This document shows, one piece after another, positions 8,163 to 45,251 of a stretch of 49,244 nt of DNA; the stretch's first letter is position 1, and each line of letters starts with the position of its first letter. This DNA comes from a virus (Duplodnaviria; Heunggongvirae; Uroviricota; Caudoviricetes). The notes under the pieces are model-generated. The model had not been told where the DNA came from. It searched no databases and was given only the letters and a program-made list of their open reading frames with translations. The position numbers were made by a program, and so were the translations under genes. The stretch lies in the IMG/VR virus record IMGVR_UViG_2526164598_000014. The stretch is one strand, 5' to 3'.

Positions 8163-8295
8163 TCTTTGGGACTCCTGGCTGATTAAGTATGTCGATAAGG
8201 CGTTTCCATCCGTCACGTAATTTACGGGTGATTCGTTCAAGTAAAGATTCGGAAGGGCAGCCAGCAACAGGCCACCCTGCAATGGCATATTGCAT
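8131..8295 (-). CDS. cIII: Lambda CIII (FtsH inhibitor, 54 aa)
   Basis: Hand translation from ATG 8293-8295: [54 protein letters not shown]; below ORF-track size cutoff. Confidence 0.9.
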   Translation of the reverse strand: MQYAIAGWPVAGCPSESLLERITRKLRDGWKRLIDILNQPGVPKNGSNTYGYPD

Positions 8296-8367
8296 GGTGT
8301 GCTCCTTATTTATACATAACGAAAAACGCCTCGAGTGAAGCGTTATTGGTATGCGGTAACGCAGCGC

Positions 8368-19399: not shown

Positions 19400-19419
19400 T
19401 ATGCCAATTGTTTACTAAA

Positions 19420-19451
19420 AATTATTAAAAATGGGGCGTTGCAACGCCCCC
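19420..19451 (-). terminator. Putative terminator downstream of the porin gene
   Basis: Hairpin GGGGCG-TTGCAA-CGCCCC at 19433-19450 followed on the reverse strand by a T-rich run. Confidence 0.35.
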
Positions 19452-19587
19452 AAAAATAAAGGGTAATATATAACAGAAGATTTATATAGTTAGAAGCAAG
19501 GTTGTGCTCCTAAAGGAAGTGGCTTGAGGGAGCCACTTATATGTTGGGGAGGCAAAGCCTCCCGCAACATATCTTTTAGTAATCAAA

Positions 19588-20670
19588 TTAGAACTGGTAA
19601 ACCATACCTACAGCAACGATATCATCGGTAGCAACGCCAGATGCTTTCGTGAAATCGCTCTTATCAATCAGGTTGATTTTGTAATCAACAAAAGTGGACA
19701 TATTTTTGTTGAAGTAATAGGTTGCACCTACATCAATATATTCAACCAGGTCCTGATCACCCCACGCACCCAAGTCTTTTCCTTTAGATTGCAGGTAAGC
19801 AACGGACGGACGCAGACCGAAGTCGAACTGATATTGTGCAACTACTTCGAAGTTTTGTGCTTTGTTGGCAATATGGTTATTACCAAAAACAGTCATGTTC
19901 TGGGTTTCAGAATAGGTGGTAGCCAGATAGATGTTGTTCGCATCATATTTCAGACCAGCTGCCCATACTTCAGCATTTTGACCAGATGCATTCAGGCTGT
20001 TGTTACCGTAGATAACCTGATTATTAGTGCGGTCAGATTTAGCATAGGTTGCACCTACACCGAATCCTTCATACTCATAAGTAGTGGAGAAACCGAAACC
20101 ATCACCATTAGCTTCAGTTACGTCAGTGCGGTCATTTTTACCCTGATACTGAGCAGCAAAGTTCAGACCATCAACCAGACCAAAGAAGTCGTTGTTACGA
20201 TAAGTTGCAACACCAGTGGTGCGACCAGTCATGAACACATCTGTTTGGGTCCAGGTATCGCCACCGAATTCTGGCAGAACGTCAGTCCACGCACCGATGT
20301 CGTATGCTACACCGTAGTTACGGCCGTAATCGATTGAGCCGTAGTCACCGAATTTCAGGCCTGCAAATGCAAGACGGGTTTTGTCTTTGGAGGAACCTTG
20401 AGATTCAGCGCGGTTGCCTTTGAATTCATATTCCCACTGACCGAAACCAGTCAGTTGATCGTTGATTTGGGTTTCACCTTTGAAGCCAAGACGGGCATAA
20501 GTAGTATCACCATCATCTGCATCATTAGAGGAGAAGTAGTGCTTAGCATTAACTTTCCCGTACAGATCCAGCTTGTTACTGTCTTTATTATAAATTTCAG
20601 CTGCCTGAGCAGACATCGCCATCAGTACTGATGCAGCTACAGCAGAAATTGCCACTGTTAATTTTTTCAT
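19588..20670 (-). CDS. nmpC: Phage-borne general porin of the OmpC/OmpF/NmpC family, 360 aa
   Basis: Signal peptide plus C-terminal ...VGMVYQF porin signature; sits between Q and holin on the opposite strand as nmpC does in DLP12. Confidence 0.85.
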
Positions 20671-21098
20671 CGTGAGCCCTTTTTTTTGAACTATTATTAA
20701 AAAATGATGTCACTGCGCGATAAATATTCATCTAATCAATGTGATTATTTCAAGATGTAAGTTTTGGTTTCTCGTTTGATTTGTGAAGTAGATCTCTATT
20801 TTTATCTGAACTTTTTTCTATCGAATCCTATTCATAGCTCTTGTCTGAATAAAAATAAATCTACTAGCCAATTTATATTAACGGCTGTTATTTATAAGTG
20901 CTCTATAATTTGAAGGTTCAATTTAAATCGGCTAAAAATAACACTGGAAATTATTTGTTGGTTATTTGTTGAGATTTGCTTATGTATTTGTAGTGGTGTT
21001 TTCAATACTCGGTAGCATTCTCGCAAATATCATTTAGTGGTTTACGTACGTAAAAAATTGGTTATGCTGTTAAGAGTGGTTACTTCGTCACACAGCTT

Positions 21099-21122
21099 AA
21101 ACCCGCCGTCGAGCGGGTTTTT
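21099..21122 (+). terminator. Intrinsic terminator upstream of holin (tR'-like)
   Basis: AAACCCGC-CGTCGA-GCGGGTTTTT hairpin plus T-run, about 120 nt upstream of the holin start. Confidence 0.45.
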
Positions 21123-21243
21123 CCATTTTTTGAGTCTCGATATTAGCTGATAACCCAATACCTGAGTTATTCACTGACTCCGAGTCTGTTACGTTTCGTA
21201 GTATTCCCTCAATTTACACCCGCTTTGTCTGCGAGGTGGGGTT

Positions 21244-21459
21244 ATGAAATCCATGGATAAGTTAACAACGGGTGTCGCCTATGGCACCTCAGCAGGTAGT
21301 GCCGGTTACTGGTTTTTACAGCTGCTCGATAAAGTCACGCCCTCACAGTGGGCAGCAATAGGTGTGCAGGGTAGCCTGGTATTTGGCCTGCTGACGTACC
21401 TGACAAACCTTTATTTCAAGATTAAAGAAGATAAGCGCAAGGCTGCGAGAGGTGAATAA
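21244..21459 (+). CDS. S: Class II pinholin of phage 21 S type, 71 aa, dual-start motif MKSM
   Basis: [58 protein letters not shown]... two TM segments, Met1 and Met4. Confidence 0.9.
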
Positions 21460-21796
21460 TGCCTCCATCATTACGAAAAGCCGTTGCTGCTGCTATTGGT
21501 GGCGGAGCAATTGCTATAGCATCAGTGTTAATCACTGGCCCAAGTGGTAACGATGGTCTGGAAGGTGTCAGCTACATACCATACAAAGATATTGTTGGTG
21601 TATGGACTGTATGTCACGGGCATACAGGAAAAGACATCATGCTCGGTAAAACGTATACCAAAGCAGAATGCAAAGCCCTCCTGAATAAAGACCTTGCCAC
21701 GGTCGCCAGACAAATTAACCCGTACATCAAAGTCGATATTGTCAACGCCAAGATTATTGGCCGTTTTTCGCCATTTTTAATGTCCGCTATTGGTCA

Positions 21797-23763
<1,967 letters not shown>

Positions 23764-24081
23764 GAGTGTTCCCTTTGTGGTGTAGGAACCTTAAGGAAAC
23801 AACATGTTGGGTGGAGCGGACAATCCAAATGGTGAATTACTGTCTTATATCATTGGCGCTGACAATATACCGGAAACAATGCGCGGCGCTCTTTACTCAT
23901 TCGTTTACAACGTGGGTGCTGGCAATTTCAGAACATCGACGCTTCTTCGCAAAATAAACCAGGGCGATATCAAAGGCGCATGTGATCAGCTACGTCGCTG
24001 GACATATGCTGGCGGTAAGCAATGGAAAGGTCTCATGACTCGTCGTGAGATTGAGCGTGAAATCTGTTTGTGGGGTCAGCA

Positions 24082-24540
24082 ATGAACAGAGTAACCGCGA
24101 TTATCTCCGCTCTGGTTATCTGCATCATCGTCGGCCTGTCATGGGCTGTTAATCATTACCGTGATAACGCCATTACCTACAAAGCCCAGCGCGACAAAAA
24201 TGCCAGAGAACTGAAGCTGGCGAACGTGGCAATTACTGACATGCAGATGCGTCAGCGTGATGTTGCTGCGCTCGATGCAAGATACACAAAGGAGCTTGCT
24301 GATGCTAACGCGACTATCGAAAGTCTCCGTGCTGATGTTTCTGCTGGGCGTAAGCGCCTGCAAGTCGCCGCCACCTGTGCAAAGTCAACGACCGGAGCCA
24401 GCGGCATGGGCGATGGAGAAAGCCCAGGACTTACAGCAGATGCTGAACTCAATTATTACCGTCTCCGAAGTGGAATCGACAAGATAACCGCGCAGGTTAA
24501 CTACCTGCAGGAATACATCAGGACGCAATGCCTGAAATAA
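24082..24540 (+). CDS. Rz: Rz inner-membrane spanin
   Basis: N-terminal TM segment, coiled-coil body; ATG at 24082 overlaps endolysin stop. Confidence 0.85.
24302..24487 (+). CDS. Rz1: Rz1 outer-membrane lipoprotein spanin, embedded in +1 frame of Rz
   Basis: ATG at 24302 preceded by AAGGAG; lipoprotein signal [20 protein letters not shown] followed by proline-rich segment. Confidence 0.65.
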
Positions 24541-42429: not shown

Positions 42430-45251
42430 TGAAAAACGTTTATGTGAAACCGCCTCCGGGCGGTTTTGTCGTTTATGGAGCGTGAGGAATGGGTAAAGGC
42501 AGCAGTAAGGGGCATACTCCGCGCGAAGCGAAGGACAACCTGAAGTCCACGCAGTTGCTGAGTGTGATCGATGCCATCAGCGAAGGGCCGGTTGAAGGTC
42601 CGGTGGATGGATTAAAAAGCGTGCTGCTGAACAGTACGCCAGTGCTGGACAGTGAGGGGAATACCAATATCTCCGGCGTCACGGTGGTGTTCCGGGCCGG
42701 TGAGCAGGAGCAGACACCGCCGGAGGGATTTGAATCCTCCGGCTCCGAGACGGTGCTGGGTACGGAAGTGAAATACGACACGCCGATCACCCGGACCATC
42801 ACGTCGGCAAACATTGACCGACTGCGTTTTACCTTCGGCGTGCAGGCACTGGTGGAAACCACCTCAAAGGGGGACAGGAATCCGTCGGAAGTCCGCCTGC
42901 TGGTTCAGATCCAGCGTAATGGTGGCTGGGTGACGGAAAAAGACATCACCATTAAGGGCAAAACCACCTCGCAGTATCTGGCCTCGGTGGTGGTGGGTAA
43001 CCTGCCGCCGCGCCCGTTCAATATACGGATGCGCAGGATGACGCCGGACAGCACCACAGACCAGCTGCAGAACAAAACGCTCTGGTCGTCATACACCGAA
43101 ATCATCGATGTGAAACAGGGCTACCCGAACACGGCACTGGTCGGCGTGCAGGTGGATTCGGAGCAGTTCGGCAGCCAGCAGGTGAGCCGTAATTATCATC
43201 TGCGCGGGCGCATTCTGCAGGTGCCGTCGAACTATAGCCCGCAGACGCGGCAATACAGCGGTATCTGGGACGGAACGTTTAAACCGGCATACAGCAACAA
43301 CATGGCCTGGTGTCTGTGGGATATGCTGACCCATCCGCGCTACGGCATGGGGAAACGTCTTGGTGCGGCGGATGTGGACAAATGGGCGCTGTATGTCATC
43401 GGCCAGTACTGCGACCAGTCAGTGCCGGACGGCTTTGGCGGCACGGAGCCGCGCATCACCTGTAATGCGTACCTGACCACACAGCGCAAGGCGTGGGATG
43501 TGCTCAGTGATTTCTGCTCGGCGATGCGCTGTATGCCGGTATGGAACGGGCAGACGCTGACGTTCGTGCAGGACCGACCATCAGATAAGGTGTGGACCTA
43601 TAACCGCAGTAATGTGGTGATGCCGGATGATGGCGCGCCGTTCCGCTACAGCTTCAGCGCCCTGAAGGACCGCCATAATGCCGTTGAGGTGAACTGGATT
43701 GACCCGGATAACGGCTGGGAGACGGCGACAGAGCTTGTGGAGGACACGCAGGCCATTGCCCGTTACGGTCGTAACGTCACGAAGATGGATGCCTTTGGCT
43801 GTACCAGCCGGGGCAGGCACATCGCGCCGGGCTGTGGCTGATTAAAACAGAACTGCTGGAAACGCAGACCGTGGACTTCAGCGTGGGCGCAGAAGGGCTT
43901 CGCCATGTGCCGGGCGATGTCATTGAAATCTGTGATGATGACTATGCCGGTATCAGCATCGGCGGGCGCGTGCTGGCGGTAAACAGCCAGACCCGGACGC
44001 TGACGCTCGACCGTGAAATCACGCTGCCATTCTCCGGTACCACGCTGATAAGCCTGGTTGACGGAAGTGGCAATCCGGTCAGCGTGGAGGTTCAGTCCGT
44101 CACCGACGGCGTGAAGGTGAAAGTGAGCCGTGTTCCTGACGGCGTTGCTGAATACAGCGTGTGGGGGCTGAAGCTGCCGACGCTGCGCCAGCGCCTGTTC
44201 CGCTGCGTGAGTATCCGTGAGAACGACGACGGCACATATGCCATCACCGCCGTGCAGCATGTACCGGAAAAAGAAGCCATCGTGGATAACGGGGCGCACT
44301 TTGACGGCGACCAGAGCGGCACGGTGAATGGTGTCACGCCGCCAGCGGTGCAGCACCTGACTGCCGAAGTCACCGCAGACAGCGGGGAATATCAGGTGCT
44401 GGCGCGCTGGGACACGCCGAAGGTGGTGAAGGGCGTGAGCTTCCTGCTCCGTCTGACCGTAACAGCGGATGACGGCAGTGAGCGGCTGGTCAGCACGGCC
44501 CGGACGACGGAAACCACTTACCGCTTCACACAACTGGCGCTGGGGAACTACAGGCTGACAGTCCGGGCAGTAAATGCGTGGGGGCAGCAGGGCGATCCGG
44601 CGTCGGTATCGTTCCGGATTGCCGCACCGGCAGCGCCGTCGCGGATTGAGCTGACGCCGGGCTATTTTCAGATAACCGCCACGCCGCATCTTGCGGTTTA
44701 TGATCCGACGGTACAGTTTGAGTTCTGGTTCTCGGAAAAGCGGATTGCGGATATCAGGCAGGTTGAAACCACAGCACGCTATCTTGGCACGGCGCTGTAC
44801 TGGATAGCCGCCAGTATCAATATCAAACCGGGCCATGATTATTACTTTTATATCCGCAGTGTGAACACCGTTGGCAAATCGGCATTCGTGGAGGCTGTTG
44901 GTCAGCCGAGTGATGATGCATCCGGTTATCTGGATTTTTTCAAAGGCGAGATAGGGAAAACCCATCTGGCTCAGGAGCTGTGGACGCAGATTGATAACGG
45001 TCAGCTTGCGCCTGACCTGGCTGAAATCAGGACGTCCATTACGGATGTCAGCAATGAAATCACGCAGACCGTCAATAAGAAACTGGAAAACCAGAGTGCG
45101 GCAATTCAGCAGATACAGAAGGTTCAGGTTGATACAAATAATAACCTGAACAGCATGTGGGCTGTGAAGCTGCAGCAGATGCAGGACGGACGCCTTTATA
45201 TCGCGGGTATTGGTGCCGGTAGTAAGCGGCTCGTCAGAACCGTATTGATAT

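Follow-up and report, generated by a model that had tools for sequence, protein, structure and literature searches.

An intact nmpC/lc-type porin cassette between the antiterminator gene Q and the predicted late promoter of a defective lambda-like prophage

The DNA considered here, referred to below as the window, is the whole stretch of 49,244 nucleotides of the IMG/VR record IMGVR_UViG_2526164598_000014 (Caudoviricetes), which is a lambda-like prophage with an integrase, red genes, a cIII thermoregulator, a nin region, Q, lysis genes, terminase, and head and tail genes. The cIII thermoregulator was matched by the Rfam model Lambda_thermo at 8250-8308 on the minus strand with 88.5 bits, which confirms a lambda-type early left operon. 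In the late region, a minus-strand ORF encodes a complete general porin precursor of 360 aa, flanked by the late antiterminator gene Q on one side and the holin gene on the other (Table 1). The gene order rusA-ylcG-quuD-porin-essD-rrrD is common to the window, to the DLP12 prophage of E. coli K-12 and to many genomes and phages. Genomes that are 99.7% identical over the Q region annotate quuD, and the Q protein is 78% identical to that of phage 933W. No NCBIfam model matched Q or the holin, and both were assigned by Pfam. Regarding base composition, the porin coding sequence has 44.0% GC and the DNA directly upstream of it much less, against 51.3% for the window, Q itself reaching only 42.7%. 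From the ATG of the porin to the ATG of the holin gene there are 573 bp, in keeping with the roughly 570 bp of very AT-rich upstream DNA of the original prediction as far as the length is concerned; the composition of this interval is uneven, only 20671-21039 being strongly AT-rich and the last 200 bp or so consisting of a late-promoter module and the holin leader (41.7% GC for 21040-21135).

Table 1. Features at and around the porin locus, with positions in the window and the basis of each assignment
Feature	Position	Strand	Basis and remarks
Late antiterminator gene Q, quuD type, 127 aa	19016..19399	+	Pfam Phage_antitermQ PF06530, E = 4e-53
Structured porin 3' UTR, predicted counterpart of the 167-nt IpeX of DLP12	19421..19587	-	inferred ends
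Predicted intrinsic terminator of the porin/IpeX transcript	19424..19450	-	hairpin 19450-19433, then T-run; terminator scan
Porin gene, nmpC/lc allele, 360 aa	19588..20670	-	ORF, Pfam, NCBIfam, alignments to Lc, NmpC and solved porins
CAGUGGC, codons 5-7 of the porin mRNA	20651..20657	-	read directly
Predicted porin promoter region (PnmpC equivalent, -1 to -199)	20671..20869	-	near-identity to K-12
CRP site	20779-20799		within porin promoter region; annotated in PA-2 record J02580, sequence identical here
AT-rich divergent control region, 29.3% GC	20671..21039		between porin gene and late promoter
Candidate late promoter pR'	21041..21068	+	-35 TTTACG 21041-21046, 16-bp spacer, -10 TATGCT 21063-21068
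Initial transcribed region and putative qut	21069..21098	+	alignment; qut annotation in NC_000924
Candidate tR' terminator: AAACCCGCCGTCGAGCGGGTTT, then T-rich tail	21099..21133	+	terminator scan; homologous to 933W terminator directly after qut
Holin gene, essD / S21 (P21) type, 71 aa	21244..21459	+	Pfam PF04971, E = 3.5e-34; essD in close relatives
Endolysin gene rrrD, split at 21739/23869 by IS	21459..24085	+	junctions vs intact rrrD of E. coli F95
IS21-like element, ISEc62 family, 2125 bp	21740-23864		istB 21797-22594 and istA 22591-23763, minus strand
IS66-family element in J	transposase 45252-46823, tnpB 46843-47190, tnpA 47190-47867	-

In the profile search, the porin covers the Pfam family Porin_1 (PF00267) over positions 1-337 of 337 (E = 3e-153). 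It scores above the cutoff of the NCBIfam OmpC subfamily model (518 against 484 bits). With the PhoE and OmpF models, its scores of 506 and 484 bits stay under the equivalog cutoffs of 599 and 583 bits, respectively. The solved porins OmpK37, OmpC, PhoE and OmpF align with it from end to end (E from 1e-137 to 1e-120), its residues 24-360 corresponding to the whole chains of OmpC, OmpK36, PhoE and OmpF, all of them solved 16-strand porins. The signal peptide of 23 aa, encoded by 20670-20602, is the one annotated for Lc of phage PA-2; the motif PEFGG of the constriction loop L3 is present, and the C-terminus reads VYQF, with the aromatic Phe as last residue. Compared with the 365-aa Lc and NmpC (for the latter, the K-12 protein after computational removal of IS5/IS5B), the precursor is collinear except for in-frame gaps of 3 and 2 aa, shares its first 148 residues with both and has 90.1% aa identity to each. 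Proteins 100% identical to it are WP_000737275.1 (RefSeq, strain F95) and the porins of phages PhiR34_1 and PhiR68_2. From the full family match, the collinearity with Lc and NmpC, the signal peptide, PEFGG and the terminal YQF, it follows that the gene is complete and not truncated; the original description had likewise been of a complete OmpC/NmpC-family porin, encoded on the opposite strand and flanked by Q and the holin.

As a member of this class, the product would form a trimeric, water-filled outer-membrane channel. Pore formation has been demonstrated for NmpC of K-12, according to the account of Hindahl 1984 given in PMC8144880; for the window allele, which departs from these characterised porins (Lc and NmpC) at about 10% of residues, such a pore is predicted. 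Salmonella OmpD and the enterobacterial OmpC, OmpF and PhoE likewise belong to Porin_1 over their full length, and phage annotators name the gene OmpD. Whereas all of these are encoded by core chromosomal genes, the window porin travels with phages and carries a 3' UTR of the IpeX type, as judged by homology.

The closest relatives of the cassette are found in DLP12 (qsr') and in phage PA-2. Besides the same gene order with the porin gene on the minus strand, DLP12 shares with the window 96% nucleotide identity over Q, 95.8% over the 3' UTR/IpeX region, 98.1% over the AT-rich upstream region and 100% over the pR' module. The nmpC gene of K-12 is broken by IS5B after codon 346, whereas the window copy is intact and encodes 360 instead of 365 aa; conversely, it is the endolysin gene that carries an IS in the window, the porin gene in DLP12. 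The lc gene of PA-2 ('protein 2', J02580) belongs to a cassette that is 91.6% identical as a whole, including promoter region, CRP site and 3' UTR, and the upstream region taken by itself reaches 95.9%. What sets Lc apart from the window porin are the regions of loops L4, L5 and L6 together with the C-terminal third, and PA-2 is a viable phage whereas the window prophage is defective. The porins of PhiR34_1 and PhiR68_2 lie in the same Q-porin-holin context, and their records are complete genomes with ECOR13 or K-12 as host.

Within this conserved setting, the coding sequence stands out, as it is only 87.6% identical to that of K-12 against 96-100% for the flanks. Over codons 1-150, a single nucleotide separates the window from PA-2 lc; beginning with codon 151, every 30 codons hold 8-31 differing nucleotides, and many of these changes are synonymous, so that the 3' two-thirds (codons 151-360) are some 10-15% divergent at the nucleotide level. 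Near-identity followed by divergence marks the gene as a recombination mosaic of two allelic lineages, with a breakpoint inside it. Indels and the densest replacements are found near residues 181-235 and 263-270, which are indel-prone positions in the OmpK37 alignment. From general porin topology, we take these stretches to be the surface loops L4-L6.

The predicted promoter region of the porin gene differs from its K-12 counterpart at four positions in 199 bp, the only difference from -1 to -165 being one extra homopolymer base at -10. In K-12, the PnmpC promoter and its start site have been mapped; CRP is reported as its activator, OmpR, IHF and MprA as its repressors, and its strength is such that most IS5 transposase mRNA originates from it (PMC11677980). 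Messenger RNA and ribosome footprints of nmpC are easily measured in K-12 and drop 64-fold at pH 4.4 together with genes of the CRP regulon (PMC10746267), and the K-12 strain NCM3722, where nmpC is intact, devotes about 2% of its proteome to NmpC when carbon is limiting (PMC8144880). Given this literature and the near-identity to K-12 and PA-2, the porin is probably expressed, and under CRP control, in the lysogen at hand. In the porin upstream region and at pR', a consensus scan found no sigma-70 hexamer pair, and both promoters are therefore assigned by homology only; within the window, visual inspection of the sequence around the CRP site gave no single choice for the hexamers and start site of PnmpC. 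The AT-rich upstream DNA could also be subject to H-NS silencing in some backgrounds.

At the post-transcriptional level, the heptamer at codons 5-7 of the porin mRNA is complementary to the 5' seed of the small RNA RybB, which makes it a putative pairing site. Among the reported targets of RybB is the mRNA of nmpC (PMC3333887).

Downstream of the porin gene, the Q-porin intergenic region (19400-19587), which holds the 3' UTR, is 95.8% identical to its counterparts in both K-12 and PA-2. The 3' UTR is strongly structured, with a folding energy of -63.2 kcal/mol (z = -8.7 against shuffled sequences), and the last hairpin of its fold is the predicted terminator, with seven pairs, six of them G-C, and the tail ATTTTTAATA. 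Processing of the phage porin transcript gives rise to IpeX, an RNA of 167 nt that acts as a repressor of ompC and ompF (PMC12197685; PMC5069750), and the 3' UTR in the window appears to correspond to it, its function being proposed from the near-identity to K-12 and PA-2 combined with this literature. At gathering thresholds, Rfam matched only the lambda cIII thermoregulator in the whole window, and neither the 3' UTR nor the pR' leader was hit by any of its covariance models. In NCM3722, OmpC is more than 10-fold below its level in MG1655 (PMC8144880). The original prediction had been silent on the IpeX region, as well as on the break of the adjacent endolysin gene by an IS.

On the other side of the cassette, the upstream region was compared with other phages in a sensitive DNA search, and 21040-21122 was the only part of it common to hundreds of Stx phages, this segment being 77% identical to the pR'-qut-terminator segment of 933W and the whole pR' module 100% identical to that of DLP12. 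The annotated pR' of 933W consists of TTTACG, a 16-bp spacer and TATCAT, and starts inside the last codons of Q (NC_000924). The window shares with the late module of 933W and H-19B the -35 hexamer TTTACG, the 16-bp spacer, the block TAAGAGTGGTTAC and the terminator hairpin; this initial transcribed block is invariant across the window, 933W, SfII, K-12 and PA-2. The pair TTTACG/TATGCT agrees with the consensus at eight of 12 positions, the threshold of the scan being nine. The assignments of pR', qut and tR' are putative: they are made by homology, and the reference features carry the label putative in their own annotation.

From the homology of 21041-21133 to the 933W late module, it follows that Q and its target promoter are set apart by the cassette, whereas the late operon itself would be uninterrupted. 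The cassette amounts to 1.64 kb of extra DNA between Q and pR', outside the late transcript and divergent from pR'. The pR' of 933W overlaps the end of Q and has its cargo (tRNAs, stx) on its downstream side, whereas in the window the 1.64-kb cargo lies upstream of it and on the opposite strand. The layout agrees with that of the SRRz operon of DLP12, where the regulatory region sits just upstream of essD and is controlled by a Q-type antiterminator (PMC7918800). The cassette had been said to separate Q from the lysis genes; Q is indeed set apart, whereas the predicted late promoter stays beside the holin gene, not beside Q, and the lysis genes are not cut off. In Stx phages, the main pR' transcript is about 258 nt long (PMC7547250), and the first hairpin, i.e. 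the tR' candidate, may therefore not terminate fully efficiently. An equivalence of the pR' leader with the Stx-phage small RNA StxS is not claimed, as StxS comes from the 258-nt pR' transcript (PMC7547250) and only some 170 nt lie between pR' and the holin here. As for the second 'CRP site' of the 1986 GenBank record of PA-2, it corresponds to 21075-21095, inside the conserved late leader.

Taken together, these elements are very probably best explained as an intact nmpC/lc porin cassette, that is a classical lambdoid moron, inserted between Q and pR' in a late region of the DLP12/PA-2 type. The usual definition of a moron (Hendrix/Juhala), with its variable slot, its own promoter and terminator and its deviant composition, is supported as far as can be judged from sequence: there is extra DNA between elements that are adjacent in 933W, it appears as an autonomous unit, with a terminator that is predicted and a promoter assigned by homology, and its GC content differs. 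The original prediction of a moron thus finds support in the predicted promoter region and terminator, in the lower G+C content and in the variability of the slot among phages. Regarding expression from the repressed prophage, which also counts among the moron criteria, the evidence comes from the literature on NCM3722 (PMC8144880) and on PnmpC of K-12 (PMC11677980).

Gene integrity, synteny, the homology of every element and prevalence were computed here. In the mechanism proposed on this basis, the cassette would act as a self-contained minus-strand unit, made of a CRP-activated sigma-70 promoter in AT-rich DNA, the porin gene, a 3' UTR of about 167 nt and an intrinsic terminator. The lysogen would transcribe the porin independently of the phage late genes, chiefly at high cAMP-CRP, i.e. 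under carbon limitation, and the product would enter the outer membrane as a trimeric 16-strand general-diffusion porin. Processing of the 3' UTR to IpeX would lower OmpC and OmpF of the host, the net effect being a swap of the cell's porins along with the phage and colicin receptors that they present. Late transcription would begin downstream of the cassette at pR' and stop at tR' unless Q acts; with such a start, the lysis operon would be uninterrupted.

Phage-borne porins alter the access of solutes, antibiotics, colicins and phages to the cell. Where K-12 strains have an intact nmpC, carbon limitation makes NmpC one of the major proteins of the outer membrane, and OmpC and OmpF are lowered by a small RNA derived from its transcript. 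In practice, the lysogen is to be treated as NmpC-positive.

The prophage around the cassette is defective and decaying, with rrrD and J broken and the porin cassette intact. The IS21-like insertion in rrrD is flanked by a 4-bp target duplication, ATAT, and phage lysis should be lost through it. The rrrD/IS junction recurs in one of 5426 complete E. coli genomes, that of the O166:H15 strain JNE070796, where the insertion is annotated. The tail-tip gene J (42489-48692) is in three pieces, which cover positions 1-443, 463-910 and 906-1163 of the TipJ profile. Two lesions break it, a frameshift near 43841-43871 and, at about 45.3-47.9 kb, an IS66-family element, for which an inverted-repeat search resolved no exact ends. 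In spite of its intact cargo gene, such a prophage would be unable to lyse its host or to assemble a normal tail tip.

One could consider that the cassette is kept mainly for phage defence or superinfection exclusion, IpeX removing the OmpC and OmpF receptors and the phage porin keeping the membrane permeable, with uptake as a secondary matter. We regard this as unlikely, if worth serious consideration: it fits the repression of ompC and ompF by IpeX (PMC5069750; PMC12197685) and the more than 10-fold lower OmpC level with intact nmpC (PMC8144880), and receptor-driven selection predicts that differences from Lc and NmpC cluster at indel-prone surface-loop positions, as they do; that the cassette stayed intact while lysis and tail genes broke also speaks for it. 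However, NmpC expression tracks carbon limitation, as would befit nutrient scavenging (PMC8144880), NmpC is reported to increase the sensitivity to some colicins and phages (PMC11677980), and the many synonymous changes in the 3' two-thirds argue for recombination between alleles, positive selection not being demonstrated.

Much less probable is an intact but quiescent gene, i.e. a dormant reserve porin with no normal effect, the AT-rich upstream DNA being silenced (e.g. by H-NS) or strain regulators keeping the gene off. The 369 bp upstream with 29% GC and the lack of a strong sigma-70 promoter in the consensus scan would be compatible with such silencing. In the known cases, that of E. coli B included, quiescence comes from IS insertions, whereas the window copy carries none. 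For E. coli B, nmpC has been called a 'quiescent porin gene' (Prilipov 1998, in the wording quoted by PMC3333887 and PMC5745476). Yet the K-12 promoter, with its four differences in 199 bp, drives transcription of the IS5 transposase (PMC11677980), nmpC mRNA and footprints are measurable in K-12 (PMC10746267), and an intact copy yields about 2% of the proteome (PMC8144880). Thus, a silent and truncated gene, the outcome named beforehand as contradicting the moron prediction, is not what is found: the ORF is full-length, and its K-12 counterpart combines an active promoter (PMC11677980) with an abundant product (PMC8144880).

The 2.6-kb stretch from Q through the porin gene to the holin gene has matches in 5014 E. 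coli records, and at least 80% of it is covered at a single place in 2394 of the 5426 complete E. coli genomes (about 44%) and also in 36 phage records. The best genome matches have 99.7% identity and are annotated ylcG, quuD, 'porin OmpC', essD and rrrD. A host chromosomal porin gene lying beside prophage remnants is practically untenable: the PGAP name is simply 'porin OmpC' and the related ompD is the major porin gene of Salmonella (PMC3333887), but the gene, flanked by Q and the holin, is part of an unbroken run of lambda-like prophage DNA, and the same arrangement in the 36 phage records, including PA-2 and the phages with an identical protein, refutes such an origin through their packaged genomes.

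The nmpC/lc locus is already known, having been sequenced, annotated and functionally studied, and the gene in the window is an intact and ordinary copy of this long-known phage-borne porin gene, probably expressed. Promoter mapping, outer-membrane proteomics and the comparison with DLP12, proposed along with the original prediction as checks, are already in the literature for this locus. None of the practical messages that the window offers is new biology. Three points are added here, namely the placement of the late promoter downstream of the cassette, the likely identity of the 3' UTR with the IpeX region and the mosaic nature of the coding sequence.

Regarding the slot between Q and pR', its content varies among phages. 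In 933W, Q and pR' adjoin and the slot is empty. In Lambda_2E9, a minus-strand gene for a Blc lipocalin (L008 3035-3559) occupies it, just downstream of a rusA-ylcG-Q block with a related Q gene, and in SfII (L006 1-1443) two minus-strand genes of unknown function lie just upstream of a pR'-like segment, the Q gene being not located there. Building on this, a bolder and rather improbable proposal would be that the Q-pR' junction of the quuD/933W type is a recurrent slot favouring minus-strand envelope genes, and that the 360-aa allele, with its shortened L4/L5 and its recombinant 3' two-thirds, is a receptor-escape variant kept by the host after IS inactivation of the prophage.

Altogether, a porin homologue is encoded in 42 phage records, including PA-2 (lc), a phage 434 stock (an IS5-broken copy) and P7 (nmpC). 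Their tblastn matches are of at least three lengths (1080, 1095 and about 1110 nt), and proteins of 360 and 365 aa were confirmed by translation. In the phage 434 stock (OL657227.1), nmpC is interrupted by IS5 after codon 346, as in DLP12 of K-12, and the record marks the area of this broken nmpC as the approximate region of 434 nonhomology.
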